A stretch of 62,844 bases of DNA from an uncultured Ectothiorhodospiraceae bacterium (lineage in GTDB: Bacteria; Pseudomonadota; Gammaproteobacteria; SZUA-152), in assembly GCA_964645165.1 (NCBI GenBank), contig CAZXZI010000002.1, forward strand, positions 1-62,844, in the 5' to 3' direction. Position numbers and translations under genes: made by a program. Below the pieces are notes generated by a model. The model did not search any database. It had not been told where the DNA came from and saw only the letters and a list, made by a program, of their open reading frames with translations. Of the stretch, positions 44,561-59,088 are shown piece after piece. Positions within the stretch are counted from its first letter, which is position 1, and the number at the start of each line of letters is the position of its first letter.

Positions 44561-44848
44561 TTATTGACTCACAGGAAGTAGCGGACTATCCATTTTTGTT
44601 TCATCCAGGTTGGCTCCCGCCAAATCGGCGGCGGTGAGATCCGCGCCGCGCAAGTCTGCGCCGCCGAGATTGGCTAGACGTAAATCCGCACCAATGAGAT
44701 TGGCGCCCCGCAGATCAGCACCCTGCAGATCAAATTGCACTAAATTGGCATTTTCCAGATTGGCGTCCCGCAGGTCGGCATTTTGCAGGCTGCTGATGTC
44801 CAGCGTTAGCAGGGTGCTGAGGCCTTTGCGGTCATGGATTACGATCAT
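44561..44848 (-). CDS. Pentapeptide-repeat protein (95 aa)
   Basis: A(D/N)L.. repeats run through most of the protein. An ATGA overlap links it to the upstream gene. Confidence 0.85.
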   Translation of the reverse strand: MIVIHDRKGLSTLLTLDISSLQNADLRDANLENANLVQFDLQGADLRGANLIGADLRLANLGGADLRGADLTAADLAGANLDETKMDSPLLPVSQ

Positions 44849-46434
44849 GCGGCGATGATGCTGCGTTGTTCAGATTCCTGCGCTTCGCTCAGTGCGGTTT
44901 CGGTGCGTTTGAGCACCTCGGCGGCGGAGTTGTCGCGGTGGGGATGAATCAGCGTGTAGCCGCAGTGCAGGCTGCAAATGAGTGTGTCGGGGATAGCCGG
45001 GTGTTGTACCTGTTTGCCGAGGAAGGATTTGTGCAGTCGTTCCAGGCAGGGCGTGGCGCCCTCGTTGGTCATGCTGAACATTAGCAGGGCAAATTGATCG
45101 GCATCGAGGTGGGCGATGTGATCCACTTTGCGTGCGTGTTCTTTGAGGGTTTTGCTCAGCAGTTTGAGCGTTTGTGTGGTTTGTTTGTCGCTGAGCTTGT
45201 TTAGCCCCTCCACGTGGATTCGCACCACGCATACTGGCGTACCGCGACGCGCAAAATCGTAGGCGCGAGCAAATTCGATATTAAATTGGCGTCGATTGGG
45301 CAGGCCGGTAACTTCATCGTTGAGTTGCTGGGTTTGCAGCAGTTGCTGTTTTTTATCGATGCCGCGTTGAATGTGGCTGATTGCGGGCAGGATTTCCGCT
45401 GTTTCGCGCAGTTGCGGGGTGGCAAATTCTTCCGCCAGGGGCTCGCCTTCAGCCAGATTGTTGAGCAGGCTTTTGATCTGCGAGAAATCCGTGCCCAGCG
45501 AACGTAGTGCGTAGCGCACCATAAAGGCGATGATGCCCACGGTGAGCAACAGGGCAGAGGTATTAAAAATCACCAGGCTTAAAAAGCTGGGCAATGAGCG
45601 GTCGGCACTTTCGGTGAGGCTGAGCTGCCAATCGCTGTGGGCGAGATTCATTTCCAGGTGTTGCGTTTTGTCCGGGTTGCCGAGATGGTCATTCTGGGTG
45701 ATGGTGTTGCCGCTGCCGTCACGCAGCACCAGCTTTTGTCCGCTGTTGGTATTCCCCTTCAGCAGGGGTTGCAGGGTCGATAGGCCAAAATTGACAAACA
45801 CCATGCCCAGCGGGGTGTCGGCGTCATCCAACACCGGGGCGACCAAATCAAAGTGACTGGTCTCGGGGGTAAGTCGGTGCACCGGCGGCATTTTAATGTG
45901 CTCTCCCTGGCTGAGTTTGGCCAGATCGGTGAGGCTTTGCGGGCCGAGCTGTGTGTCAGCCGGTGCGCCCAGGATCTTCCCCGAGGTGCTCAGCAGCGCC
46001 ACACCCATGGCCTGCGGCAGGAATCGACGCATTTGCAACGCCCAGGTCTGGGCGCTGGTTTCATCATTATTTTCGAGAATGTCCTGCGTGGTGGGCTGGG
46101 TGGCGACGTGGTTGACGATTTCCTGGAAAAAAGCCAATTGCGATTCCAGCGTGTGCGCCTTGTCGGCAAGACGTTGGCTGAGCCCGCTATCTTCCGAGCC
46201 CTGGTAATAGGTTTTAGCCAGAAAAAGATTGGTCGCAGTAATGGATAAAAACAGGGTAACAATGACAATGGCGCTGGTGTAGGCGATAAATTTGACTGAA
46301 AAAGCACTAAACAGGGATTTGCGCTCGGCAGCCGTATTGGCAGCCGCATCGGCGTCAGTCGCGGGCGGTGATGCGCTGTTGGCTTGTTCGGTGACGTAAA
46401 CAACCGGGCCGCTGTGCTCGTTGGTCTGAAACAT
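44845..46434 (-). CDS. Membrane sensor with a periplasmic domain and a degenerate GGDEF domain (DADQF)
   Basis: Two TM segments flank a domain of about 200 aa. The C-terminal DEVTGLPNRRQF...HLDADQFALLM places DADQF where GGDEF is expected. Confidence 0.8.
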   Translation of the reverse strand: MFQTNEHSGPVVYVTEQANSASPPATDADAAANTAAERKSLFSAFSVKFIAYTSAIVIVTLFLSITATNLFLAKTYYQGSEDSGLSQRLADKAHTLESQLAFFQEIVNHVATQPTTQDILENNDETSAQTWALQMRRFLPQAMGVALLSTSGKILGAPADTQLGPQSLTDLAKLSQGEHIKMPPVHRLTPETSHFDLVAPVLDDADTPLGMVFVNFGLSTLQPLLKGNTNSGQKLVLRDGSGNTITQNDHLGNPDKTQHLEMNLAHSDWQLSLTESADRSLPSFLSLVIFNTSALLLTVGIIAFMVRYALRSLGTDFSQIKSLLNNLAEGEPLAEEFATPQLRETAEILPAISHIQRGIDKKQQLLQTQQLNDEVTGLPNRRQFNIEFARAYDFARRGTPVCVVRIHVEGLNKLSDKQTTQTLKLLSKTLKEHARKVDHIAHLDADQFALLMFSMTNEGATPCLERLHKSFLGKQVQHPAIPDTLICSLHCGYTLIHPHRDNSAAEVLKRTETALSEAQESEQRSIIAA

Positions 46435-46865
46435 CGGTCGGGGTGATAGCCTCTTTTTTATCTTTGTCGTGACTAATGGTGAATACGAATGAAGCAAGCT
46501 AAAAACGCTTTGTGTATGTACAGTATAGTGGCTTGAACTGTACACAAACTTAATGGTCTGCATAGTTTAAGTTTGCGCAGTCGGAAACGGTGTAAACGCT
46601 CTGCCAGCCCAGAAGGTTGCCTTTGTTTTTATGTCTGCTTGAGGACTTTGTCGGTATATCTGTAAAAATGTTGAATCTTGCTCTCGAACGGTTATTTTAC
46701 GATAAGCTGCGTAAGAAAATAAACCTTAAAATCGATAATTTTATCGCGGCATTCGCTGAGTTTTGGCGTGAATTTTGACCACTTTGCCTCGTAATTGCTG
46801 GCTGGCATTGGGTTGTTTGAGCCGATGGGGTATGCTCGAGTGGACGATATGTTGAGCGGAGTAGT

Positions 46866-47444
46866 ATGAAAAATGTAAGTTTAGCGCGACGGAGGTTCGC
46901 GTTTTTAAGTGCGAGTCTTGCGGGCTTGGGGCTGTTGGCGTCGGGTATGGCCTATGCGGCGGGCGTGACGGCGAGTGCGACAGAGAATGTGGCACGATTT
47001 GCTCAATTAGACGAAGCTGCTGAAAAAATTCTTAATAAAGTCACTGCCTTGGGTGGTGATATGGCTGTGCTGGAAGAAGCACGGGAATTGTCACCCAAAA
47101 CGCAACTGCTGTTGTTAGTAACAGTCGATCCCAGTCCATTTTTCCAGTTAGATGCCATCCAGCTGCAAATTGACGAGCACGCGGCGGCTTACCACCAATA
47201 TACCAAACTCGAATTGGCCGCGCTGCAACAGGGCGGCAGTCATCGGTTGTTTTGGGACAATGTGCCCGCCGGTCGGCACCAGCTCACCGTGTCAATGATG
47301 GGACGCGTGCCCAAAGATCCCGACTTTCAGCGCGAATCCACACTGGTGATTATTTCCGGCGTGGGACGTCGGGTGGTGGAGTTGCGGGTCGCCTCGGGTA
47401 AAAGTCAGCCGTTTCCAGAAATGTCACTCAAGGAGTGGAAGTAA
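46866..47444 (+). CDS. Secreted 192-aa protein, first gene of the TPR/ExbBD cluster
   Basis: The signal peptide is MKNVSLARRRFAFLSASLAGLGLLASGMAYA. The stop TAA abuts the next ATG. Confidence 0.7.
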   Translation: MKNVSLARRRFAFLSASLAGLGLLASGMAYAAGVTASATENVARFAQLDEAAEKILNKVTALGGDMAVLEEARELSPKTQLLLLVTVDPSPFFQLDAIQLQIDEHAAAYHQYTKLELAALQQGGSHRLFWDNVPAGRHQLTVSMMGRVPKDPDFQRESTLVIISGVGRRVVELRVASGKSQPFPEMSLKEWK

Positions 47445-48914
47445 ATGCGTGGCCGTCAGATGAGCGGCGCGCTTCTCTGTGCGGTGGCAGGTGTGTTGCT
47501 GGGCGCTGATGCGCTTGCCGCCACGCCAATCAACTGGGAGCGCATTGAAGACCCGTTAGTGCGTGCCGCCCAGTTTGATTTGTTGATGGGCGAACCGTTT
47601 GAGGCAGTCACTCGTTTGGAAGCGGATCTTGGGCAGGGACGCATTAAACATCGGCCCGCTCAGGCGCAGTTGGTGCTGGGCGGTATGTATCTCGCCAATG
47701 GCGCGCATCACAAGGCGGCAGAGATTTTTGAGCGTTTGGGCAACAGTGACCAACCACAGGCGGTGCGCAATCAAGCCTGGTTGAGTCTGGCGCAAGTGCA
47801 GTATCAGCGCGGGCAAACCGAAGTGGCGCTGGCATCGTTGCACCGTATTCGCGGCGATTTATCCAGTCAGGCACAGCAGGAGCGTTTGTTGCTCAGTGGA
47901 ATGTTGAACATGAAGAAAGGTCGTTTTGCAGAGGCGGCAAATTCGCTGCGCCAGTTGGGAAAAAAATCGCTGGTGCAGCAATTGAGTGAAAAATCCGTGT
48001 GGGCGACTTACGGTCGTTTCAATCTGGGGGTGGCGTTGTTTCGGCAGGGCGAAGAAGCCGAAGGCAACAAATTGCTGGAAGAGTTGGGTGCTGCAGAGGC
48101 AGATACTGTAGAGAGTCTTGCACTGCGTGACAAGGCGAATTTGACTCTAGCTTACCATTATCTCAGCAAAAATGAACCGGAAAAGGCACAGCAATATTTT
48201 GTCAAAACGCGTTTGCGAGGCCCCATGTCCAGTCGTGCTTTGCTGGGGCTGGGACGCGCTTATTCTGCCAAGGGGCAGGATAAAAAATCGCTGGTGCCCT
48301 GGTTGAAGCTGGTCAAGCTGGATGCCAGCGATCCTGCCGTGCAAGATGGTTTGCTGGCCGTGCCGTTCGCCTTCGGCAGACTGGAAGCCTTCAAGCAAGC
48401 GCTGGCCTATTACCAGCAAGCACTGGAAAAGTTTAAGGCAGAAATGGAACAAGTACGCCAGGCGGAAACGGCGGTGAACAGCGGTACCCTGGTGGATAAT
48501 CTGGCGCGTGCGGTGGCCAGCCAATCGGCGGACCAACGCTGGCTGGTGCAGGAGCTACCTAACACCCCCGGCGGGCGCTATTTGTGGCAGCTGTTTGCCA
48601 CCAATGAATTTCAGGAAACTCTGAAAAATTATGCGCAGTTGCGGTTATCGTTGGGACGGCTGGAGCAGTGGTCATCGCAGATTGATGATGCCAAAAGCCT
48701 GGCGCCATCACATCGGCAAAAGTTAGATAAAAGAGTGTTGGCTTTGCAGGGTGCGTTATTGTCGATGTTGGATCGCATTCAAGCCCACCTCAAGATATTG
48801 GCGCAGGAAACGCTGGATCACCGCAAGCAGCGCCTGCTCGGTTATGCCGGAGAAGCGCGTTTTTCCATGGCGCAGATTTATGATTATGCATCCAAGCGCT
48901 GGGGTAGTCAGTAA
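47445..48914 (+). CDS. Secreted TPR-like repeat protein (489 aa)
   Basis: A signal peptide is followed by repeated helical A/L/Y/G patterns (e.g. LVLGGMYLANGAHHKAAEIFERL, AYHYLSKNEPEKAQQYF). Confidence 0.75.
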   Translation: MRGRQMSGALLCAVAGVLLGADALAATPINWERIEDPLVRAAQFDLLMGEPFEAVTRLEADLGQGRIKHRPAQAQLVLGGMYLANGAHHKAAEIFERLGNSDQPQAVRNQAWLSLAQVQYQRGQTEVALASLHRIRGDLSSQAQQERLLLSGMLNMKKGRFAEAANSLRQLGKKSLVQQLSEKSVWATYGRFNLGVALFRQGEEAEGNKLLEELGAAEADTVESLALRDKANLTLAYHYLSKNEPEKAQQYFVKTRLRGPMSSRALLGLGRAYSAKGQDKKSLVPWLKLVKLDASDPAVQDGLLAVPFAFGRLEAFKQALAYYQQALEKFKAEMEQVRQAETAVNSGTLVDNLARAVASQSADQRWLVQELPNTPGGRYLWQLFATNEFQETLKNYAQLRLSLGRLEQWSSQIDDAKSLAPSHRQKLDKRVLALQGALLSMLDRIQAHLKILAQETLDHRKQRLLGYAGEARFSMAQIYDYASKRWGSQ

Positions 48915-51772
48915 TGAATTTGAGGTTATTGTACCAGCTGTTGAATAAGCGATTATTGGTTTTGCTGCCAATCTTGCTTGTGGCGGGTTGTGCTGGCGCA
49001 CCGAAGCAGGAAACGCTCGGCGACCTTGGTGAGCTGGATATTAAAATTGATACCAAATCGCCTATCGCGGGCAGTCGCAACAAGGCGATGGATAATTATT
49101 GGGAGTTCATGTCGGGCGCCAAGGAAGAGACACAAAAAGTTGAGGCCATGCGCCGCTTGGCCGATTTGGAAATGGAGCGCAGTGAAGAGCGTTTTCAAAA
49201 GCAAATGGAAGTGTTTGCGCAGAGCGATTCGGCGGGTTATACCGATGCCCAGGCTTTACGGGAAATTACATTCCGCGGCGCCATCAAACTTTACGAAGAC
49301 GCTCTGAAATTATCCAGTGGTGGCAAACAATCCATTGATTTGCTGTACCAGGTTTCCAAGGCTTATGAGCAAGCGGGCCAACAAGAGAAAGCCATGGATG
49401 CACTAAATCGCCTGTTGGCAATGGATCCGCTGGCAAAGAATCGCGACGAACTACAATTTCGCCGTGGCGAGTTGCTGTTTGATTTACATAAATTCAAATT
49501 GGCGGAACTGGCCTACACGCAAACCATCAGTATGGGTCCATCTTCGCGCTATTACGAAAAAGCAATGACCAAGCAGGGCTGGACTTTATTCAAGCAAGGA
49601 AAATACCCGCGCGCCTTGAAAACGTTCTTTTCTCTGGCAGATCGCAAACTTAAACCTGCGGTGGGTTTGGTGGGCACACGTAAATTGAGTCGCGGTGACA
49701 AAGAACTTATTGATGATGTGTTTCGTATTGTGACGTTGACGTTTGATGAATTGGGCGGCGCAAAAGCGATAAAAACCTATTTTGACGAAAATGGACGTCG
49801 TGGCTATGAGATTCGGGTGTACCGCGACCTGGCTGAATTTTATGCGAAAAAGAATCGAGTGCGGGATGCGGCGGAAGCCTACCATGCCTTTACGAAAGCA
49901 TATCCCATGCATGAGCAGGCCTTTGAATTTGATTTGAAAGCAATAAATGCCTACACCCGATCGGGTTTTGCCAGTGTGCTGATCGAAGAAAAACGCACCT
50001 TTATTAAGCGCTACCGTATTAATGGCGCTTACTGGAAACATTACGAAGATCAGGAAGATACCATTCTTGCACAGCTAAAGGCCGCACTACAAAAAAATTC
50101 GGAAGATGTGGTGCGCCATTTTCATGCGGTAGCGCAGAAAAGCAAAACGGCGGTTGCCTATCAAACGGCCTTTGTCTGGTATCGACAACACCTGAAATGG
50201 TTTGGCCAAAGTAATCATGCACAAAAGCTGAATTTTCTTTATGCAGAACTTTTATTCGAATCAGGGAACTTTGAAAAAGCCGCCAAAGAATATGAAAAAA
50301 CAGCATATCGCTATTTGCGCTTTGGCAAAGATGCTGAGGCTGGATATGCCGCGTTGCTGTCCTACGCCGAGGCAGAAAAAAAGGCAAAAGGGAAACAAAA
50401 GGCAACCTGGAGTCGTTTAGCAGTGGGTAGCGCCATGCGCTTCGGTAAAACATTTCCTGACGATAAGCGCGCAGCACAAGTATTGACCAAAGCGGCTCAG
50501 GACATGTTTGCCCTGAAAAAATTTAATCAGGCTGCTGTGGCGGCACGGCAAATTTTGGAGTTGTCGCATGATGCGAAGCCGGCGGCGAGGCGCACGGCGT
50601 GGAAAATCATCGCGCGTGCTGAATTTGAGAAGGGTGATTATGCACGTGCAGAAGTGGCTTATAAAGTGGCGTTGAGTTTAACGGGCGTTGATGATGCCAG
50701 TCGGACAGCGTTAAGAGATGGCTTGGCTGCCGCCGTGTACAAACAGGGTGAGTACTTGAAGTCAAAAGGAAATTTGCAGGCAGCGATTGCTCAGTTTGCC
50801 CGGGTTGAGCAGGTGTCGCCTGACTCTGCGGTGATTCAATCCGCTGAATTTGATATTGCTGCCAGCCTGATGGAAGCCAAAAATTGGCTGGGTGCGATAA
50901 CTAAGTTTACGGTGTTCCGTGATCAGCACCCCGAGCACCCACTGACGGCGAGGGTCTCGGAAAATTTGATCAAGGCATATTTGAAAAACAAACAGCCGCT
51001 GAAAGCGGCCGCAGAACTGGAAAGTTTGGCGGCTAACAAAACAGACCCTGAAATCAAACGGGACGCCCTGTGGCAGGCGGCAGAATTGTACGAAAAGTCA
51101 GGTAGTCAGCAGCAGGTTATCGCCACCTTCAAGCGTTTTGTGGGTATGTTTCCACAGCCCATGGAGCAAGCGACTGAAGCACGCAATAAATTGGCCGCTA
51201 TTTATGGTAAATCAGGTCAGGCGAGTGAGCGTAGGTACTGGTTGAAAGAAATTATACGCCGCGACAAAAATGCAGGGAGTGCCAGTACTCCGCGTACGCG
51301 ATATCTGGCGGCGACAGCGGCATTGGAGTTGGCTGAGCCAGCCCTGCATTCTTTTCAGCAGGTCAAGTTAGTGCGGCCATTAAAGCAGAACTTGAAACGT
51401 AAGAAGAAAAAGATGAAGGAGGCCGTGGATGCATTTACGGTCGCTGCAGATTACGGAATTGCTGAAGTCTCCACAGAATCGGTTTATTGGCTGGGAGAAA
51501 TTTACAATGAGTTTGGCCGAGATTTGATGACATCAGAACGGCCGCCAGGTTTGTCGCAGGAAGAGCTTGAACAATACGATATTCTTTTGGAAGAACAAGC
51601 CTACCCCTTTGAAGAGAAGTCGATTACCATTCATGAGTCGAATGTGAGCCGCACGAGCGAGGGCACATTTGACAAGTGGGTGAAAAAAAGTTTTGCAAAA
51701 TTACGGAAGCTGAGCCCCATACGTTACTCCAAGTCAGAAAAGAGTGAAGCAATTGCCCAGTTTATTTATTAG
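48914..51772 (+). CDS. Large TPR lipoprotein (952 aa)
   Basis: A lipobox LLVAGC is present and the start overlaps the upstream stop (TAATG). TPR-like helical repeats run throughout. Confidence 0.8.
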   Translation: MNLRLLYQLLNKRLLVLLPILLVAGCAGAPKQETLGDLGELDIKIDTKSPIAGSRNKAMDNYWEFMSGAKEETQKVEAMRRLADLEMERSEERFQKQMEVFAQSDSAGYTDAQALREITFRGAIKLYEDALKLSSGGKQSIDLLYQVSKAYEQAGQQEKAMDALNRLLAMDPLAKNRDELQFRRGELLFDLHKFKLAELAYTQTISMGPSSRYYEKAMTKQGWTLFKQGKYPRALKTFFSLADRKLKPAVGLVGTRKLSRGDKELIDDVFRIVTLTFDELGGAKAIKTYFDENGRRGYEIRVYRDLAEFYAKKNRVRDAAEAYHAFTKAYPMHEQAFEFDLKAINAYTRSGFASVLIEEKRTFIKRYRINGAYWKHYEDQEDTILAQLKAALQKNSEDVVRHFHAVAQKSKTAVAYQTAFVWYRQHLKWFGQSNHAQKLNFLYAELLFESGNFEKAAKEYEKTAYRYLRFGKDAEAGYAALLSYAEAEKKAKGKQKATWSRLAVGSAMRFGKTFPDDKRAAQVLTKAAQDMFALKKFNQAAVAARQILELSHDAKPAARRTAWKIIARAEFEKGDYARAEVAYKVALSLTGVDDASRTALRDGLAAAVYKQGEYLKSKGNLQAAIAQFARVEQVSPDSAVIQSAEFDIAASLMEAKNWLGAITKFTVFRDQHPEHPLTARVSENLIKAYLKNKQPLKAAAELESLAANKTDPEIKRDALWQAAELYEKSGSQQQVIATFKRFVGMFPQPMEQATEARNKLAAIYGKSGQASERRYWLKEIIRRDKNAGSASTPRTRYLAATAALELAEPALHSFQQVKLVRPLKQNLKRKKKKMKEAVDAFTVAADYGIAEVSTESVYWLGEIYNEFGRDLMTSERPPGLSQEELEQYDILLEEQAYPFEEKSITIHESNVSRTSEGTFDKWVKKSFAKLRKLSPIRYSKSEKSEAIAQFIY

Positions 51773-51793
51773 CACCTTCTAAAACGGTTTTTT

Positions 51794-52429
51794 ATGCAAT
51801 TTTTATTTTCCTCAAGAAAAAGTTTACAGAGACATTTTAACCACCTTATTTTTGTTGGGATGGTTTTATTGCTGGGTGCTTGTGCAGCTACAGGCCCTAG
51901 CAGTGATGTTGATTCTACGCCGAAAAAAGAACGGCCAAAAATTGATCCGAAAATTGCTACAGCGTATGAAGCTGCTTTATCAGCCATGCGTGCGGGCAAG
52001 ACGGCAAAGGCAGAAAAGGCTTTGCAGCAATTAACAGCGCAATACCCGAATTATTCCGGCCCACAAGCCAATCTAGGTATCTTATATTTCCACCAAAATA
52101 AATTAGAAAAGGCAAAGATGGCCTTTCAGGCGTCATTAAAAATAAATCCTCAAAATGTCGTTAGCTTGAACCATCTGGGTATTCTTAGCCGTGGCGCCGG
52201 GGATTTCAAACAAGCACAAATTTATTATGAGAAGGCGTTGCAGATAGACCCAAAATACGCATACGCCCATCTTAATTATGGCATTTTGTTAGAGTTATAT
52301 ATGGGCAAGTTTTCAGCAGCATTGCAGCACTATCAGCAGTATCAAAAATTGACGCCAGAAGAAGATATCGAAGTTAAGAAATGGATTGTTGACTTGGGGC
52401 GTCGAGTCAAAGCTAAGGCGAAAAAATGA
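51794..52429 (+). CDS. TPR lipoprotein (211 aa)
   Basis: A lipobox LLLGAC is followed by canonical TPRs (NLGILYFHQNKLEKAKMAFQASLKINPQN, NHLGILSRGAGDFKQAQIYYEKALQIDPKY). Confidence 0.8.
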   Translation: MQFLFSSRKSLQRHFNHLIFVGMVLLLGACAATGPSSDVDSTPKKERPKIDPKIATAYEAALSAMRAGKTAKAEKALQQLTAQYPNYSGPQANLGILYFHQNKLEKAKMAFQASLKINPQNVVSLNHLGILSRGAGDFKQAQIYYEKALQIDPKYAYAHLNYGILLELYMGKFSAALQHYQQYQKLTPEEDIEVKKWIVDLGRRVKAKAKK

Positions 52430-52728
52430 AACAACTTTTCTTTCCGATTTTTATTGCGGTGATGTTGCTATCGACGAATGCACTAGCTTCAGATCGCATT
52501 GAGTTGGATGAAACCGCGATACAGGGTAGTCGGGAATTACCCAAAATTTTGTATATCGTGCCGTGGAAAAGCGCACGTCTGGGTTTGCTGCAAGGCAGTG
52601 CGGGGAGTAGTTCTTTTGATACTGCTTTTGAAGCCTTGGACAGAGATGTATTCCGACGCCAGATCGAATATTATGGCATGCTATACGGAAGCGTGACGCA
52701 AGCGGCATCTAATGTAAGCGTGAAGTAG
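52426..52728 (+). CDS. Small secreted protein (100 aa)
   Basis: The signal peptide is MKQLFFPIFIAVMLLSTNALA. An ATGA overlap links it to the upstream gene. Confidence 0.65.
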   Translation: MKQLFFPIFIAVMLLSTNALASDRIELDETAIQGSRELPKILYIVPWKSARLGLLQGSAGSSSFDTAFEALDRDVFRRQIEYYGMLYGSVTQAASNVSVK

Positions 52729-53019
52729 GGCGCAGAACAAACAACAGTTTGATGCCGTGAATAATAAGTTAGATGTAGGCATTAACTGACTGAACCTTCC
52801 TGATTTACTATCAGAAATTTAAGAAAATCGTTAAAATGCCGCCATCTATAAGGCATTTACGCATGTGCATTGTTTGCAGCGTTTTGTGAACTAGGTCAGA
52901 TTAAAGTGAGTACATTTCGTGGCACGCTAGGCCGCAATCTGGGTAATAAGGTTATACCGGTAACATATAAGACCAAACGTGCGGCATAAAATTGATTGAT
53001 GTGATTTGAGGAGAGAAAT

Positions 53020-53676
53020 ATGGATGTCATTAACGCGATTGTGAAATTTTTCCAGGAAGGCGGGATGTTTATGTATCCCATCTTGTTGGTATTTGCGATA
53101 GGTGCCGCGATTGCGATTGAACGATATATGTATCTGACCCTCGCTAAATTAAGCAATCGTAGCATGTGGGATAAATTAACCCCGCTAGTGAAGGCCAATA
53201 ATTATGAGCAGGCGATGGCGATCAGTAGCCGTTCAAAATCAGAAGTTGGCAAGATCATGTCTTATGGATTAAGCCGTTTGCGCATGACCAAGCATCGTGA
53301 TGATATCGAAATTGCCATGGAAGAAGGCTTGATGGAAGTCATTCCTCGGCTTGAGAAACGTACTCATTACCTAGCGACCTACGCCAATATTGCGACCTTG
53401 CTCGGTTTGTTGGGCACTATCATTGGTCTGATCCAGGCCTTTACTGCAGTAGCCAATGCCAATCCGGCAGATAAGGCCGACTTGCTCTCTGCCAGTATTT
53501 CCGTGGCCATGAACACCACCGCCTTTGGTTTGATGGCCGCAATTCCTTTACTGCTGATGTTTACCGTATTGCAAACAAAAACAACGGAGATTGTCGACAG
53601 CATGGAAATGGCTACAGTGAAATTTCTCAATTCGATCACTGAGTACCGCAAAGAACCTGCGCGTAAAGCAAATTAA
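53020..53676 (+). CDS. MotA/TolQ/ExbB proton-channel protein
   Basis: GAGGAGAG precedes the ATG. Three TM segments and the conserved LATYANIATLLGLLGTIIGLIQAF and SVAMNTTAFGL motifs are present. Confidence 0.9.
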   Translation: MDVINAIVKFFQEGGMFMYPILLVFAIGAAIAIERYMYLTLAKLSNRSMWDKLTPLVKANNYEQAMAISSRSKSEVGKIMSYGLSRLRMTKHRDDIEIAMEEGLMEVIPRLEKRTHYLATYANIATLLGLLGTIIGLIQAFTAVANANPADKADLLSASISVAMNTTAFGLMAAIPLLLMFTVLQTKTTEIVDSMEMATVKFLNSITEYRKEPARKAN

Positions 53677-53691
53677 GCGGAACGACTTCGT

Positions 53692-54186
53692 ATGTCTGTA
53701 AGATCCCGCGTACGGCGCGCACATCGTGAAGCGCCAGAACTGAATATCACTGCCTTTTTGAATTTAATGGTAGTGCTCATTCCGTTTTTGCTGCTTTCAG
53801 CTGTCTTTTCCCAGCTCAGCATTCTGGAGCTTAATCTACCGCCAGATACAAAATCACAGGCTAACAAAGAGCAAAAGAAGGTGCGGAATTTTGAGGTGAT
53901 TATCCGCAAAGACAGATTAGTAGTTGCGGATACTATTGGCGGCGTGTTGAAAATCATTAAAAACACGGATGGCAAACATGACTTTGTAGCGCTTTCAAAT
54001 TTCCTGACGAAGGTCAAAGTGCGTTTCCCCAAAAAGCAAAACATCAGCATTTTGTTAGAGCCGGACACTAATTATGAGCTGCTGGTCAAAGCCATGGACA
54101 CGGTTCGCGAGGTAAAAGTGGTTGAGGCAGCATCTGTTGTGAGAAAAGAATTATTTCCACAGATCGCCATTGGTGATGCGCCATGA
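53692..54186 (+). CDS. ExbD/TolR family protein (paralog 1)
   Basis: ELNITAFLNLMVVLIPFLL forms the N-terminal TM segment with the family pattern, followed by a periplasmic domain. Confidence 0.85.
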   Translation: MSVRSRVRRAHREAPELNITAFLNLMVVLIPFLLLSAVFSQLSILELNLPPDTKSQANKEQKKVRNFEVIIRKDRLVVADTIGGVLKIIKNTDGKHDFVALSNFLTKVKVRFPKKQNISILLEPDTNYELLVKAMDTVREVKVVEAASVVRKELFPQIAIGDAP

Positions 54187-54689
54187 GCGAGTCTCGTCGC
54201 GCCAAGCGAATGTCGCGCCATCATGCGCGTTCCAAACGCAATGCCACGCTTAATATGGTTTCATTGATGGACATCTTCACTATATTGGTGTTCTTTCTCT
54301 TGGTGAGCTCCTCGACAGTGCAGGATTTACCAAACGCTAAGAAAATCAAACTTCCAGAATCTATTTCTGATCAGCTGCCAAAGGAAACTGTCGTCATTAT
54401 AGTGGGTGCGAGTGATATCGTTGTGCAAGGCAGAAAAATTGCCTCAGTCGCGGATGTGATGCGCACGAAGAGCGCAGAAATTAAAGCCCTAAAAAATGAA
54501 CTACTACGTCTTACTGCTCGGAAAGTACGAACAAAAACAGTCGATGGTAAACCCGTGTTGCGGGAAGTCACCATCATGGGCGATAAGAAAATTCCTTTTG
54601 CCTTGTTGAAAAAAATTATGCTGACGTGCACAAAAGCGAGTTACAGCAATATTTCTCTGGCAGTTTTGCATAAACGGGATAAGGGTTAA
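54183..54689 (+). CDS. ExbD/TolR family protein (paralog 2)
   Basis: LNMVSLMDIFTILVFFLLV forms the TM segment with the conserved Asp. An ATGA overlap links it to the previous gene. Confidence 0.85.
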   Translation: MSESRRAKRMSRHHARSKRNATLNMVSLMDIFTILVFFLLVSSSTVQDLPNAKKIKLPESISDQLPKETVVIIVGASDIVVQGRKIASVADVMRTKSAEIKALKNELLRLTARKVRTKTVDGKPVLREVTIMGDKKIPFALLKKIMLTCTKASYSNISLAVLHKRDKG

Positions 54690-54692
54690 GTC

Positions 54693-55631
54693 GTGTCTGT
54701 AATGGTGTACCGCTCATTTATATTGCCATGGACTCGTCTGGAAGAAGATGAAGGGCGGCTCAAGAAAATTGTCACGATTGCCTTGGCAGTGGCATTTATT
54801 TTTAGTGTGGTTGTGCCCTGGGTTCCCGTACCCAAAGTCGATAGGGACAAAGTGGAAGAGCTGCCACCGCGTCTGGCACAACTGTTGTTGGAAAAACAGA
54901 AGCCCAAACCAAAGCCCGCACCTAAAAAAGTAGAAAAGAAGAAAGAGAAGAAGAAAGAAAAAAAGAAGGTAAAGAAAAAAGAAAAACCGAAAAAGAAAAT
55001 TGAAAAACCAAAGGTTGATAAAGTAGCTGAGGCACGAAAGAAGGCAGCCTCTTCGGGTTTGTTGGCGTTCGCCGATGAGCTAGCTGATTTGCGCGATAAG
55101 CCGGTAGCCAAGTCATTGAACAAGAGCAGGCATTTGGCAAAGGGCGTCACTGCCGCCAAGGTGATGAAACGCAATATTCTGACCTCAGGTACGGCTGGTA
55201 GCGGCGGTATTGATACCTCCCATTTAAGTAGCGGCGTTGGCCGCAGCGCATTGGCCGGCCGTGAAACGACGCAAGTGGAAAGTCCGGTGGACATGGTGGC
55301 CAAGGCTGGCCCAAAAGTCTCTGGAGGAGGTTCTGGCAAACCTTCCCGATCTTACGAAGAAATTTCCCTGGTGTTTGATAAAAATAAAGGCGCAATCTAT
55401 TCGTTGTACAGTCGTGCTTTACGCAAGGATCCTACGCTGCAGGGTAAGGTGGTGCTGGAAATTACCATTGCATCGTCCGGCAGGGTAACATCCTGTAAAG
55501 TGATTTCCAGTGAGTTGAACGACAAACGACTGGAACATAAATTGGTTGCGCGGGTGAAATTGTTGAACTTTGGCTCACGGAATGTTGAGGTTATGGTGGT
55601 TACTTACCCCATCGACTTCCTGCCAACCTGA
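54693..55631 (+). CDS. TonB-like protein with a poly-Lys/Glu/Pro spacer and an AgmX/PglI-type C-terminal domain
   Basis: An N-terminal TM segment (IVTIALAVAFIFSVVVPWV) is followed by KPKPKPAPKKVEKKKEKKKEKKKVKKKEKPKKK. The C-terminus is IYSLYSRALRKDPTLQGKVVLEITIASSGRVTSCKV...VTYPIDFLP. The start is GTG 54693 or ATG 54702. Confidence 0.75.
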   Translation: MSVMVYRSFILPWTRLEEDEGRLKKIVTIALAVAFIFSVVVPWVPVPKVDRDKVEELPPRLAQLLLEKQKPKPKPAPKKVEKKKEKKKEKKKVKKKEKPKKKIEKPKVDKVAEARKKAASSGLLAFADELADLRDKPVAKSLNKSRHLAKGVTAAKVMKRNILTSGTAGSGGIDTSHLSSGVGRSALAGRETTQVESPVDMVAKAGPKVSGGGSGKPSRSYEEISLVFDKNKGAIYSLYSRALRKDPTLQGKVVLEITIASSGRVTSCKVISSELNDKRLEHKLVARVKLLNFGSRNVEVMVVTYPIDFLPT

Positions 55632-55660
55632 CTGCTGGGTGTTGCGCTAACGTTACTTGC

Positions 55661-56401
55661 TCAGACCGCAGTATTAAGAATATTTCCCAAGGCATCCCCT
55701 GCAGATGTGACTTGCTTGATGAGTTGCACAAGATCTTTTGATGCGTCTGGTGTCGTCTCGTGTGCCCCTGTGTCTTCTGTACCGTTCGCCCTGTTGTCAG
55801 TAACCACTTTTCCTTTAGTTAAGTCCGTTTCAGTCTTGCTGTAATCGTTTGGACTGCCCTCGGCATCTTCCGGCTTAAGGCGTTGTGCGAGTAACTCTGC
55901 GCGAGCCGATGTGGCCATTTGTGAAGCGGCAGAGGCGACGGCGCGATCAGCACCGGAAGGTTGAGATGGAGCGAGCGCGGCCGTCTGAATGCGTTGCGCT
56001 TTTAGCAGTGTTGCCTCGGGGTTTGCACCGGGTGACGTGTCGATACTGACTTCACCACTCACCGCATAGCGCTGCCCATCGGGTCCTTTGGTGTAACCAA
56101 AACTCGCACCCCCTCGGGCGAGTCCGCCAGCTGCCGCCAGGTGTGCCTGCTCGTGAGCGCGGACTTGACGATCGGTTTTTTTCAGTTCAGCAATAATGCG
56201 ATAGTCGGTGTCAGTCAGTTCTAGTTTATTAGTTTTTTGTTCCCCGTTTGTGGCGGCCTTTTCGGAGGTTTGCGTCGTATCAGCTGCTTTAGTGGGTTTA
56301 ATTGCGGCTTCTGGATCAGTGGGATTACTGGGCGCGACGAGGATCTTTGCGGACACTTGCAAGGGCGATGAAGGCGGGCGGGAAATGGCAGGTAGCTGCA
56401 T
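55661..56401 (-). CDS. SprA-related / putative metalloprotease (CJM1_0395-type) family protein
   Basis: IAELKKTDRQVRAHEQAHLAAAGGLARGGASFGYTKGPDGQRYAVSGEVSID... has the HEQAH motif in the family context. Confidence 0.7.
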   Translation of the reverse strand: MQLPAISRPPSSPLQVSAKILVAPSNPTDPEAAIKPTKAADTTQTSEKAATNGEQKTNKLELTDTDYRIIAELKKTDRQVRAHEQAHLAAAGGLARGGASFGYTKGPDGQRYAVSGEVSIDTSPGANPEATLLKAQRIQTAALAPSQPSGADRAVASAASQMATSARAELLAQRLKPEDAEGSPNDYSKTETDLTKGKVVTDNRANGTEDTGAHETTPDASKDLVQLIKQVTSAGDALGNILNTAV

Positions 56402-56451: not shown

Positions 56452-56703
56452 TTAAGCAGTGACGTCCAGCAGACTGCCAATAATGGTGCTCACGCTTTCA
56501 ACCACTTTGCTGGAGGCCTTTATTTGCAGCTCATCCAGTTTCAGGTTGACCAGCGAAGAGGACACATCGACAGGTTGTCGAATCTGCTCGCTGCCCGTGC
56601 CTTCGTTGATGGCCTGCGCTATTGCGGAGGCATCACGACGCATGTTGCTAAGGCCTTGATTAATACCGTTAATACCGGTGTTTAGGGCTGTAATGCTCAT
56701 CAT
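56452..56703 (-). CDS. Mini protein (83 aa) resembling fused N- and C-terminal segments of flagellar rod/hook proteins
   Basis: The N-terminus MMSITALNTGINGINQGLSNMRRDASAIAQ and the C-terminus VDVSSSLVNLKLDELQIKASSKVVESVSTIIGSLLDV follow the Flg_bb_rod and FlgEFG C-terminal heptad patterns. This is pattern-level evidence only. Confidence 0.45.
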   Translation of the reverse strand: MMSITALNTGINGINQGLSNMRRDASAIAQAINEGTGSEQIRQPVDVSSSLVNLKLDELQIKASSKVVESVSTIIGSLLDVTA

Positions 56704-56826
56704 CGTAATCTCATGTTGCGATACGTCAGTTCGGTTTTCCGTGTTTAAAAACACAGCAACCGCTAACCTCTGTATCGTACAGCGCCCATTTCACTGTAGT
56801 GCATTTTGGCTGATTGGCAACCGGGC

Positions 56827-57384
56827 TTATTTGTGGCTATGCCGCCCCGGTTGCCACAGCACGTCGGCCTGTTCTGCCTGCTGATTGAGGTGGCGAGCCA
56901 GTACAAATAACAGGTCAGAAAGCCGGTTGAGATATTGCAGCGCAAGTGGAGAAACGGACTCGTTGCGCGCCACGCTGACTAGGCGGCGTTCGGCACGACG
57001 GCACACTGTGCGTGCCAGATGGCATGTAGCTGCTGCGGCGCAGCCACCCGGTAGAATAAATTCCTTTAAGGGCTTAAGCGTGGCATTCATATCATCAAGT
57101 TCATTTTCCAAACGGTTAACGTAATCCGCAGTCAGTGCCTCCCTGCCGGGGATGCATACCTCCCCGCCAAGATCGAACAGATCATGCTGGATGCCGGTTA
57201 ATAATGCTTGTGTATCCTCACCAATGTCATGAGTAAGTAGAAGACCAAAAAAGCTGTTCAATTCATCAATGTCGCCAAAGGCCTCCACACGCAAACTATC
57301 TTTTCCAGTACGACTGCCGTCACCCAGACCCGTCGAGCCATCGTCGCCCGTGCGGGTATAAATTTTAGAAAGACGATGTCCCAT
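56827..57384 (-). CDS. ATP:cob(I)alamin adenosyltransferase, PduO type
   Basis: KIYTRTGDDGSTGL, RVEAFGDIDELNS, LQHDLFDLGGE, FILPGG and LARTVCRRAER are present. Confidence 0.92.
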   Translation of the reverse strand: MGHRLSKIYTRTGDDGSTGLGDGSRTGKDSLRVEAFGDIDELNSFFGLLLTHDIGEDTQALLTGIQHDLFDLGGEVCIPGREALTADYVNRLENELDDMNATLKPLKEFILPGGCAAAATCHLARTVCRRAERRLVSVARNESVSPLALQYLNRLSDLLFVLARHLNQQAEQADVLWQPGRHSHK

Positions 57385-57462
57385 AGCCCTTTTCCTTAAA
57401 TACGCATGCGGAGTTGCTACGAGTATAATAACAGCCCGATGGAACAGTACCGAAAAAATAAA

Positions 57463-58344
57463 ATGAATGGCTTACAAATAATCGTATTTTGGCTTCTTGT
57501 GGTGTACTGGCCAATGGCGCAGGCTTTGTTGATTGTCACCGATGATGCGGGCAATAAGGTAACGTTGTTGCAACCGGCAAAACGTATTATCAGCCTGGCG
57601 CCCCACGTGACGGAGCTACTGTATGCTGCGGGCGCTGGTGACCGACTCGTCGGCGTGGTAGAGCACAGTGATTATCCGCCCGCCGCAAAAAAACTCCCGC
57701 GCGTGGGTTCCTACAATGCCCTCGACCTGGAAAGGATCGTTGCATTGCGACCGGATCTGTTGGTGATGTGGCAAAGCGGTACTTTACAGAGTCCCGTGCA
57801 AAAATTACGGAAAATGGGCATTCCCGTTTATGCCAGTGAACCACGTAAGCTGGAAGACATTGCACGCAATCTGCGTCAGCTCGGTATTCTGGCGGGTACG
57901 GAAAAGACGGCCCGGGCTGCTAGCAACCAATTCCTGAACACATTAAAAAAACTACGTACGCGTTACCGCACAAAAAAACCGGTGTGGGTGTTTTATCAAA
58001 TCTGGAATCGGCCGCTGATGACCATCAATGGTAAGCATATGATCAGTCAGATTATTGAACTTTGTGGGGGGCGTAATATATTTTCGGGCCTTTCTGCGCT
58101 CGCACCTAAGATAAGTCTGGAAGCGGTGCTGGCAAAAAATCCACAGGTGATTGTGGGCGGTAGTGTAGCCAAGGCCAACCCAAACTGGAAAAAAGATTGG
58201 AACAAGTGGCCGCAGTTAAGTGCGGTAAAAAACCAGGACATTTTTTATGTGAATCCTGATCATTTACAACGCCACACCCCACGTATTTTGCAAGGTGCCG
58301 AAGCGCTTTGCAGAAAATTAGAGGATGTACGCGAAAGACGTTAA
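57463..58344 (+). CDS. btuF: Periplasmic cobalamin-binding protein (BtuF-like)
   Basis: A signal peptide is followed by RIISLAPHVTELLYAAGAGDRLVGV, YNALDLERIVALRPDLLVMW and the class III SBP pattern. An alternative start lies at 57439. Confidence 0.8.
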   Translation: MNGLQIIVFWLLVVYWPMAQALLIVTDDAGNKVTLLQPAKRIISLAPHVTELLYAAGAGDRLVGVVEHSDYPPAAKKLPRVGSYNALDLERIVALRPDLLVMWQSGTLQSPVQKLRKMGIPVYASEPRKLEDIARNLRQLGILAGTEKTARAASNQFLNTLKKLRTRYRTKKPVWVFYQIWNRPLMTINGKHMISQIIELCGGRNIFSGLSALAPKISLEAVLAKNPQVIVGGSVAKANPNWKKDWNKWPQLSAVKNQDIFYVNPDHLQRHTPRILQGAEALCRKLEDVRERR

Positions 58345-58354
58345 CAGTTACTGT

Positions 58355-59080
58355 TCAACCATCGCGTAACTGGTAACTCACGGGTAAAAGCAGTTCCATC
58401 GCCTGCGACGGGCCGAAGCGGTTTGGCAGGTCAATAGCGTCCAGTTTGGCAATGGCGGCTACTGCAGAACGATCTAACAGCGAGTACCCCGAACTTTTAG
58501 CCAGTCGTACATGATTGAGTTGACCAAGATTATCGATGCGCAGAGAGACGATCACCTCTCCCTGCCAACCTCGACGACGTGCTCGTTGCGGGTAAGTTAA
58601 ATAACGGCTTAAACTATTTTGTATTTCGCCCAGCAAATAATTACGTTGTTGCAGTCTTTGTCTGCTTGGCGATGCCGGTTTGGCTAGAGCTGCGGTGGCG
58701 GTACTGTTTGTTGCCTGTTGTGCCGGTGGTATTTCTTCCTGCGTTTGTGGCGAGAGGGTGGCTTTATGGGAAGTCTTTGGCGTGGTCTTCTTAGCCGTAG
58801 CGACCTCTGCCAAGCTGACGGATTTAGCAATATAGCCAGTTTGTTCTGTAGCCGGAACGTGAGGGGTCGGGAGAGCTTTGGGTGGTGTGGTTGCTGTGAT
58901 CACCGTGCTGATGTAACGGGTGCCAAGCGGGCGTGCGGCTGTTTGCGTAACGGGGTCTTGTGACCACAGTAAGCTCAGGCCATGCACCAGGATAGAAATG
59001 ACAATAAAGGCGAGCAGTAGACTCGACGCGCTGTTATAACGTGCCGGTTTCACTGTCTCACCTTTATTGCAGAGTGCCAT
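58355..59080 (-). CDS. tonB: TonB family energy transducer, co-transcribed with btuB
   Basis: An N-terminal TM segment (LLLAFIVISILVHGL) and a Pro/Thr/Ala-rich spacer lead to the C-terminal YPQRARRRGWQGEVIVSLRIDNLGQL...SSGYSLLDRSAVAAI. The gene lies 8 nt after the btuB stop. Confidence 0.85.
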   Translation of the reverse strand: MALCNKGETVKPARYNSASSLLLAFIVISILVHGLSLLWSQDPVTQTAARPLGTRYISTVITATTPPKALPTPHVPATEQTGYIAKSVSLAEVATAKKTTPKTSHKATLSPQTQEEIPPAQQATNSTATAALAKPASPSRQRLQQRNYLLGEIQNSLSRYLTYPQRARRRGWQGEVIVSLRIDNLGQLNHVRLAKSSGYSLLDRSAVAAIAKLDAIDLPNRFGPSQAMELLLPVSYQLRDG

Positions 59081-59088
59081 CGGCGTGA

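Follow-up and report, generated by a model that had tools for sequence, protein, structure and literature searches.

Which kind of machine is encoded by a cluster of nine genes that combines tetratricopeptide repeat (TPR) proteins with an ExbB/ExbD-family motor and a TonB-like protein, and what work would it do? The question is raised by positions 46866-55631 of a 62,844-nucleotide (nt) stretch of DNA (contig CAZXZI010000002.1 of assembly GCA_964645165.1; "the window" below means this whole stretch) from an uncultured Ectothiorhodospiraceae bacterium, where nine open reading frames (ORFs), named here O1 to O9 in order, follow one another on the + strand. A preliminary description of this DNA likened the cluster to the reduced "core" of the Agl-Glt gliding motor of Myxococcus. 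Our analysis gives a similar answer: with a probability of roughly three in four, the nine genes encode one envelope-spanning, proton-driven machine of the Agl-Glt "core complex" class. This reading is directly supported by the domain content of the proteins, the tight and overlapping packing of the genes, the conservation of the block in two proteobacterial classes, and the GltG-type tail of O9. The nine-gene arrangement is far beyond chance, and its order and strand are kept in nearly all of 80 related loci.

The core complex was described by Luciano et al. 2011 as a single locus with gltC, gltD, gltE, an extra gene without Myxococcus homologues, aglR, aglQ, aglS, and gltG; its carriers were several Gammaproteobacteria, one Betaproteobacterium, Geobacter, and Fibrobacter, and no function was assigned (PMC3169522). 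The seven named genes make up "Group B" of that study. According to Table S3 of that study, the proteins measure 550-690 amino acids (aa) for GltC, 933-1016 aa for GltD, 162-263 aa for GltE, 217-245 aa for AglR, 169-188 aa for AglQ, 162-185 aa for AglS, and 321-371 aa for GltG, the extra gene being visible as a skipped locus tag (PMC3169522). The corresponding window proteins, O2 to O9, measure 489/952/211/100/218/164/168/312 aa. In Methylibium petroleiphilum the published series (Mpe_A1224-A1231) is 634/941/243/-/217/170/163/371 aa (PMC3169522), and a locus from a Methylibium metagenome-assembled genome (MAG) reads 628/956/214/97/222/173/163/365 aa, with a large TPR protein that is 41% identical to O3 over its full length. 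The reduced-core interpretation of the preliminary description is thereby borne out, as both the order and the sizes of the genes match the published complex (PMC3169522). Three TPR genes stand in GltC/D/E order and are followed by a small gene before the motor, O2 being shorter than its published counterparts; then come one MotA/TolQ/ExbB gene and two distinct ExbD/TolR genes, adjacent or overlapping, and straight after these motor genes a GltG-like single-pass protein with an AgmX/PglI-type tail.

The likeness to the 2011 core complex thus extends to order, strand, sizes, the small gene between the gltE-like and aglR-like genes, the GltG-type tail, and the occurrence as a standalone locus in non-gliders. 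In contrast to that complex, the window has O1 upstream, a shorter gltC-like protein, an Asn in the AglQ-position paralog, and a host lineage outside the 2011 list. The cluster is therefore a new member, from an uncultured host, of a family described in 2011, and because of this membership the long-standing question of what the core does was not opened by the find itself. Literature searches returned no functional study of the core in any carrier; papers of 2013 and 2020 still present it without a function, and a 2025 modelling paper does not address it (PMC11761067).

Conservation was assessed in a scan of species genomes (one genome per species) with the large TPR protein O3 as the query. 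An O3-type protein is encoded in at least 594 species genomes, and the best 80 of these related loci, designated L001 to L080, were compared with the nine window proteins by tblastn. At the protein level, O3 has at least 2990 homologues (E<=1e-5, with the 8000 candidates sharing the most words as the scored set), of which the nearest is metagenome-derived and 86% identical. These 80 loci are spread over Chromatiales, Ectothiorhodospiraceae, Acidiferrobacterales, Ca. Thiodiazotropha, Sedimenticolaceae, Steroidobacteraceae, and several Burkholderiales. Among the matches listed, those nearest to the window are from uncultured Chromatiales-like MAGs and not from Cellvibrionales. The closest locus of all, L001, belongs to a Chromatiales MAG (80% identity) and has flanking genes in common with the window on both sides, so the window derives from an organism of this kind.

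The preliminary description had made its reading depend on the genes being co-conserved in relatives, and we observed the block with its order and strand unchanged in almost every one of the 80 loci, across Gamma- and Betaproteobacteria. Each gene is present in 65 to 80 of the 80 loci, most absences falling at contig ends. O2 and O4 are both syntenic in 74/80 loci and O5 was found in 77/80, while O1 lies directly upstream of O2 in 53 of the 59 loci with enough upstream sequence (at least 4 kb), at a median gap of 12.5 nt. There are a few departures from the complete block. The cluster begins at O3 in a small clade (L007, L008, L010, L011), and motor genes were not found in L014 and L035, although the TPR and small-protein genes are there. 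No motor genes were seen in L028 and L040, but these contigs stop soon after O5. One and the same MAG carries both L005, a complete bare cluster, and L028, which is linked to accessory genes and has no motor in view; the pair recalls the single AglRQS motor shared by Glt and Nfs in Myxococcus. In L014 (7851-9992), O1 and O2 form a single ORF of 713 aa, through either a true fusion or an error in the MAG. L038 shows a read-through from DUF3570 into O1, in an assembly with an apparent frameshift in a neighbouring gene. Both cases were judged too weak to serve as Rosetta-stone evidence.

In the window, all nine same-strand ORFs were recovered at the coordinates and lengths first proposed for them (Table 1), and the junction strings (TAA directly followed by ATG, TAATG, and ATGA twice) are all found in the sequence. 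The intergenic distances from O1 to O9 are, in order, 0, -1, 21, -4, 291, 15, -4, and 3 nt, so the single exception to the tight packing lies, as described, between O5 and O6. Profile searches reproduced the proposed domain content, namely TPR in O2, O3, and O4, MotA_ExbB in O6, and ExbD in O7 and O8, and found no TonB-dependent receptor, TolB, Pal, or OmpA domain in the cluster. They also placed a classical TonB elsewhere in the window (TonB_C, 58 bits), beside a BtuB-like receptor and BtuF at 57406-61110.

Table 1. Features of the nine-gene cluster in the window. Signal peptides and lipoboxes were called by eye.
Feature	Position	Strand	Length	Description
O1	46866-47444	+	192 aa	Secreted; signal peptide, helix 36-75, beta-sandwich 79-191
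O2	47445-48914	+	489 aa	Periplasmic TPR protein, GltC position
O3	48914-51772	+	952 aa	TPR lipoprotein (LVAGC), GltD position
O4	51794-52429	+	211 aa	TPR lipoprotein (LGAC), GltE position
O5	52426-52728	+	100 aa	Secreted; "additional gene" of the core complex
Spacer	52729-53019		291 nt	Ahead of the motor genes
O6	53020-53676	+	218 aa	MotA/TolQ/ExbB-family channel subunit, AglR position
O7	53692-54186	+	164 aa	First ExbD/TolR paralog, AglQ position
O8	54183-54689	+	168 aa	Second ExbD/TolR paralog, AglS position
O9	54693-55631	+	312 aa	GTG start; GltG-like TonB/TolA-type transducer

The channel subunit O6 matches PF01618 (MotA_ExbB) with 101.5 bits. It scores 65.4 bits with the TolQ model (cut-off 221) and 42.6 bits with the ExbB model (cut-off 206), and since both cut-offs are missed, O6 is an equivalog of neither. 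Aligned to the solved TolQ and ExbB structures, it keeps the threonines of transmembrane helices 2 and 3 (TM2 and TM3). O7 and O8 match PF02472 with 53.4 and 65.7 bits, respectively; their scores with the TolR model are 25.5 and 23.4 bits (cut-off 127) and that with the ExbD model is 19.8 bits (cut-off 153). The two paralogs differ at the proton-binding site. The transmembrane Asp30 of O8 is conserved in 68/68 orthologues, whereas O7 has Asn24 aligned with the proton-binding Asp (D25 of E. coli ExbD, D23 of TolR). Of 68 O7 orthologues, 49 have Asn here and 19 have Asp, the Asp cases all belonging to Steroidobacteraceae-type loci. Judged from sequence, the hallmarks of a 5:2 motor are thus a protonatable Asp30 in O8, carried by one of the two plug subunits, and the retained TM2 and TM3 threonines in O6.

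The transducer O9 begins with about 25 cytoplasmic residues, in which an LPW motif is conserved; a single transmembrane helix and a linker rich in Lys, Pro, and Glu lead to the AgmX/PglI C-terminal domain. That its tail resembles AgmX/PglI rather than classical TonB_C had been noticed earlier and holds in profile searches, where the tail domain NF033768 gave 69.9 bits (cut-off 40) and PF03544 gave 21.7 bits (cut-off 24.6). The similarity of this tail to Glt proteins is a property of the whole family, as 33/33 members match NF033768 and 32/33 match the GltG model. Among Glt proteins, NCBIfam has models for GltE, GltG, GltJ, and the tail domain only. With the GltG model (NF033760), residues 51-307 of O9 align to positions 368-643 of 650 (E 3e-13); the alignment spans the full periplasmic part of GltG and none of its cytoplasmic FHA region, and its 49.1 bits do not reach the equivalog cut-off of 650. 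The score with tolA_full was 15.2 bits (cut-off 59), and no solved structure was matched by the O9 sequence.

Of the three TPR proteins, O2 matches TPR_16 (48.2 bits) and further TPR families. Its relatives have a median length of 622 aa vs 489 aa in the window; about 130 C-terminal aa are missing in the window clade (L001-L006), and therefore O2 stops right at the start of O3. The proposed correspondence of O2 to GltC is positional and follows Table S3 of Luciano et al. 2011. The earlier characterization of O3 as built almost entirely of TPR-like helices goes further than the Pfam TPR matches, which cover only approximately residues 117-243 and 603-787. O3 further contains a CpoB/YbgF-like stretch at 643-758 (71.8 bits, ybgF cut-off 90.1) and a BamD-like one. 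The features invariant in our alignment A1 of O3 are Cys26, a helix at about 73-95, and the C-terminal motif LLEEQAYPFEEK; in the Steroidobacteraceae-type loci, many O3 proteins are apparently without the lipobox Cys. O3 is probably the central scaffold of the machine. O4 matches TPR_2 with 64.1 bits and the gliding_GltE model NF033758 with 52.9 bits. The latter score is far under the cut-off of 225 and no better than those of PilW and PrsT, and for this reason the similarity of O4 to GltE is generic. The idea that the TPR proteins resemble GltC/D/E holds only in part: the GltE match is significant yet generic, and the likeness of the three proteins to their Myxococcus counterparts rests on synteny and published phylogeny.

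The two small secreted proteins flank the TPR genes. Neither O5 nor O1 matched any Pfam or NCBIfam model, permissive thresholds included. The O5 family comprises 1265 clusters at 50% identity (E<=1e-3), and the best 150 of the 1265 hits are all close relatives. Its invariant motifs are RELPKxLYxxPW and DRDVFRR; in an AlphaFold2 model, the conserved segment 32-61 is unstructured and is followed by a C-terminal helix (62-98) that carries DRDVFRR. The preliminary description had counted GltF among the genes of the reduced core, and this part does not hold, as the published core is without GltF, which is a "Group A" gene of Myxococcales and Bdellovibrionales. By analogy, O5 may nevertheless act as a GltF-like bridging adaptor, because it follows the gltE-like gene as gltF does and combines a strand-like unstructured motif with a conserved helix. 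O1 is a conserved gene of the block, the first and the ninth to be counted, and is not in the published core list. Its AlphaFold2 model has a mean pLDDT of 79.7, with values >90 within the beta-sandwich. Foldseek searches against the PDB returned only generic beta-sandwich matches (best E 4e-3, TM-score <=0.35), so no fold was assigned and no function is inferred for O1.

How such a machine might work can be sketched from the solved TolQR and ExbBD structures and from the AlphaFold model of the Myxococcus machine by Cambillau and Mignot 2025. In that model, an AglR pentamer surrounds an AglQ-AglS heterodimer and the transmembrane helix of GltG docks on AglR (PMC11761067); an AglR-GltG interaction was also seen by two-hybrid assay (PMC3169522). 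The GltG linker wraps GltD, whose N-terminal domain lies next to the TonB-like tail and whose C-terminal domain carries GltE, and GltC connects to outer-membrane barrels (PMC11761067). GltF, small and mostly disordered, adds a strand to the GltG tail and places its C-terminal helix in a groove of GltC (PMC11761067). The seven published core proteins are exactly the inner-membrane and periplasmic modules of this model. Its GltD and GltE are numbered from Cys1 (PMC11761067), and O3 and O4 carry lipoboxes likewise.

Transferred to the window, the model suggests that a pentamer of O6 would form the proton channel around an O7-O8 heterodimer, in which O8 only would supply the protonatable Asp. O9 would dock on O6 through its transmembrane helix and, with its long charged linker, would span the periplasm and wrap the outer-membrane-anchored O3, to which O4 would bind. 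O2 would be the connector toward outer-membrane partners, with the beta-sandwich protein O1 probably as its accessory, and O5 would bridge the O9 tail, by TonB-box-like beta-strand addition, and O2, through its C-terminal helix. Proton flow would thereby be converted into movement of, or force on, a TPR "shaft" under the outer membrane, which may be pulled or turned. The most likely output would be the moving, positioning, or releasing of outer-membrane or surface components; gliding itself or TonB-type nutrient import is an unlikely output.

Compared with the Agl-Glt and Nfs machines of M. xanthus, the cluster has a TolQ-like subunit (by analogy a pentamer) with two distinct TolR-like subunits, a TonB/TolA-like transducer that ends in an AgmX/PglI tail, one large and one small lipoprotein with TPRs, and a TPR protein as periplasmic connector; as in Agl-Glt, a small disordered periplasmic adaptor is encoded in the gltF gene position. 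Unlike Agl-Glt, it is without the GltA/B/H barrels, GltK, CglB, GltI, GltJ, AglZ, and MglA, occupies one locus instead of three, has no FHA domains in O9, and scores far under the GltE and GltG cut-offs.

Several points weigh against the assignment to the core-complex class. The orthology of O2/O3/O4 with GltC/D/E and of O6-O8 with AglRQS rests on synteny, size, and published trees, and membership as a whole is argued from architecture, synteny, the tail domain, and published phylogeny. The GltE model matches O4 no better than do other TPR families, and every protein-protein contact in the proposal is drawn by analogy. O6 has Val at the site of TolQ E173 and ExbB E176, so the TM3 Glu is gone, and the transmembrane helix of O9 is without the conserved His of TonB and TolA. 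The Asn of O7 equals the D28N change in AglQ that paralysed the M. xanthus motor, and for this reason the stator may differ from AglRQS in its working. Finally, no outer-membrane partner is encoded beside the cluster in the window.

An outer-membrane partner may be sought in the neighbourhoods of the relatives. A gene for a TlpA-like redoxin, DUF3570, or ApbE was found in 45/59 loci no more than 10 kb from the block and in its orientation, usually directly upstream of O1, and OMP_myx_plus barrels occur in about 30% of relatives. The fullest arrangement, found in Burkholderiales, Acidiferrobacterales, and a few unclassified gammaproteobacterial loci, reads ApbE, a PD40/HZS-alpha/CxxCH lipoprotein, an SH3-fused beta-barrel (SH3-OMP), OMP_myx_plus, TlpA, DUF4266, DUF3570, and O1-O9. 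In Aquabacterium the order is SH3-OMP, OMP_myx_plus (157 bits), TlpA, DUF4266 (79 bits), DUF3570, and O1-O9. The module lies upstream of O1 in L009, L012, L015, L016, L018, L023, L031, L034, L037, L049, L051, L059, L067, and L075, and accessory genes lie downstream of O9 in L019, L022, L024, L025, L042, L046, L058, L063, and L079. The Ca. Thiodiazotropha loci have ApbE alone attached. The Steroidobacteraceae-type loci (L033, L041, L044, L045, L047, L052, L053, L057, L060-L062, L065, L066, L069, L071, L074, L076, L077) have a different upstream set, composed of a 413-aa CxxCH protein, an 844-aa CxxCH/Laminin_G_3 lipoprotein, a 540-aa protein with a Tat-like signal, and TlpA, and a conserved 117-aa gene right after O9. 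No module genes lie beside the cluster in the window or in L001-L006 and L055, and none were found anywhere in the 62.8 kb of the window; a tblastn search of the whole window with the relatives' OMP_myx_plus and SH3-OMP proteins gave no match. The two adjacent barrels, from a family expanded in Myxococcus, are reminiscent of GltA/GltB by analogy.

These neighbourhoods suggest another possible output, in which the cluster would energise an outer-membrane redox module (ApbE-flavinylated DUF3570, DUF4266, a TlpA-like thioredoxin, and OMP_myx_plus) that would be encoded elsewhere in the present genome. DUF3570 is a proven ApbE substrate, and Méheust et al. 2021 showed the ApbE-DUF3570-DUF4266-TlpA module to be a flavinylation-linked extracytoplasmic redox system whose role they did not assign, with no mention of ExbB, ExbD, or TPR neighbours (PMC8238504). 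The link between the block and the flavinylation module is mentioned in neither the 2011 core paper nor the 2021 flavinylation paper. Consistent with such an output are the frequency of the association given above, the Aquabacterium order, and the MAG with a bare complete cluster (L005) and a second, accessory-linked one (L028). However, the module genes are missing next to the cluster in the window and its nearest relatives and from the rest of the window, Ca. Thiodiazotropha has only ApbE, Steroidobacteraceae have other upstream genes, and adjacency is no proof of a functional link; we regard this output as rather improbable. A broader proposal, which we hold to be unlikely, is that the block is the ancestral, self-contained form of Agl-Glt, that its stator is an obligate heterodimer in which the AglS-position subunit alone binds protons, that O5 is the equivalent of GltF, and that the native output is neither motility nor secretion but the mechanical energising or assembling of the ApbE-flavinylated DUF3570/DUF4266/TlpA module (with paired OMP_myx_plus barrels in about 30% of relatives), which would be located elsewhere or lost in the window lineage.

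The motor and the tail also invite comparison with systems that do not glide. A Tol-Pal-like paralog that tethers or constricts the outer membrane, for integrity or division, with O9 as TolA and O3 as a CpoB/YbgF-like partner, would account for the best scores of O6 with TolQ and of O7 and O8 with TolR, and for the CpoB/YbgF-like and BamD-like stretches in O3. A PD40 beta-propeller lipoprotein, of the TolB-like repeat type, is encoded upstream in some relatives, and the 2025 model compares AglR5QS-GltG directly with TolQ5R2-TolA (PMC11761067). Both machines would have a 5:2-type proton channel and an elongated transducer, anchored in the inner membrane, that reaches an outer-membrane lipoprotein complex. 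In contrast to Tol-Pal, all Tol equivalog cut-offs are missed (65 vs 221, 25 vs 127, and 72 vs 90 bits for TolQ, TolR, and YbgF), there are two different TolR-like subunits where Tol-Pal has a homodimer, the O9 tail is of the GltG type and not TolA domain III, the TM3 Glu is absent, and neither TolB nor Pal is encoded in the window cluster. We consider such a paralog distinctly unlikely; mechanistically it overlaps with the core-complex reading, and the chief difference is the proposed output. Less probable again is a second, specialised TonB-ExbB-ExbD system that energises nutrient-uptake receptors and has the TPR proteins as accessories. The ExbB/ExbD-family subunits, the single-pass protein with its Pro/Lys-rich linker and TonB_C-like fold, and a score of O9 above the TIGR01352 tonB_Cterm cut-off (32.4 vs 27.1) agree with it; TonB paralogs are common, receptors are often unlinked, and partner recognition is probably via beta-strand addition in both systems. 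Nevertheless, no TonB-dependent receptor family is among the conserved neighbours of the 80 loci (the window BtuB matches only L001, which is syntenic with the window), the O9 tail falls under the Pfam TonB_C cut-off and scores far better with the GltG/GltJ tail domain, the SHLS/His motif is absent from the transmembrane helix, and the ExbB and ExbD equivalogs are missed widely (42.6 vs 206 and 19.8 vs 153 bits). The five strictly co-conserved periplasmic proteins, with obligatory TPR lipoproteins and two small proteins among them, are not a feature of Ton systems, and a classical TonB with BtuB stands 3 kb off. Without a co-conserved receptor or the His motif, and with a tail from another family and five obligatory periplasmic neighbours, the cluster is unlikely to be mere TonB redundancy, as the preliminary description had already held. 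Shared ancestry and core architecture would also permit a working gliding motor like Agl-Glt. This is very unlikely, and the least probable of the readings, because the modules specific to gliding (gltA, B, H, K, I, J, cglB, and the MglA/AglZ platform) are absent from the cluster, which has no beta-barrel, adhesin, or cytoplasmic-platform gene, and because O9, aligned to positions 368-643 of the GltG model only, is without the FHA domains that GltG has in the cytoplasm.

Read as a core complex, the window adds no new kind of system, and the parts list grows to nine genes vs the seven plus one published. The family is widespread, as judged from the at least 594 species genomes with the large TPR protein and the 1265 clusters of O5, and both the gliding and the spore-coat machines of Myxococcus evolved from the core complex. 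The natural Asn/Asp asymmetry of the stator could inform work on 5:2 motors with heterodimeric plugs. The recurrent tie to the flavinylation/thioredoxin module, together with the Myxococcus-type barrels in about 30% of relatives, suggests where to seek the cargo, and Aquabacterium, Methylibium, Marinobacter, and Cellvibrio offer culturable relatives for such a search. If true, the redox output would join two widespread systems without assigned function.

The spacer between O5 and O6 shares conserved blocks, such as GCTATCAGAAAYTCAAGAATATCGTTAAAATGCCG and TGGCAYGC, with L001, L002, and L003, and the Shine-Dalgarno sequence GAGGAG is conserved along with them. It may be an internal promoter or an operator/regulatory region. 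As an RNA element or terminator it was rejected, since it has no Rfam match and no terminator-like site inside; no promoter-like match was found on the + strand within the spacer, and the region-wide counts of such matches were at shuffle level. TGGCAYGC was likewise dismissed by eye as a canonical sigma-54 site, its spacing being wrong.

Upstream of the cluster and divergent from O1 lies a gene for a membrane GGDEF protein (44845-46563, - strand), which L001-L004 and L006 have at the same place. A GGDEF domain is also encoded divergently just upstream in the clade with O3 as the first gene (L007, L008, L010, L011); in L007, the single locus of these that was read completely, it belongs to a GGDEF-EAL protein. 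These neighbours hint at control linked to cyclic di-GMP. On the other side, convergent to O9, are a gene for an SprA-related protein (PF12118; 55661-56401, - strand) and one for a 100-aa protein without a family match (56452-56754, - strand), which is kept right after O9 in L001, L003, L006, L007, L008, L010, and L011. They are followed at 56827-61110 by a cobalamin cluster that encodes a PduO-type adenosyltransferase, a BtuF-like protein, the classical TonB, and the BtuB-like receptor, and that is syntenic with L001. The G+C content is 0.435-0.48 at 50001-56000 vs 0.56 just upstream (42-46 kb), a low value that would fit either the Lys-rich proteins or horizontal transfer, which has been proposed for core complexes.

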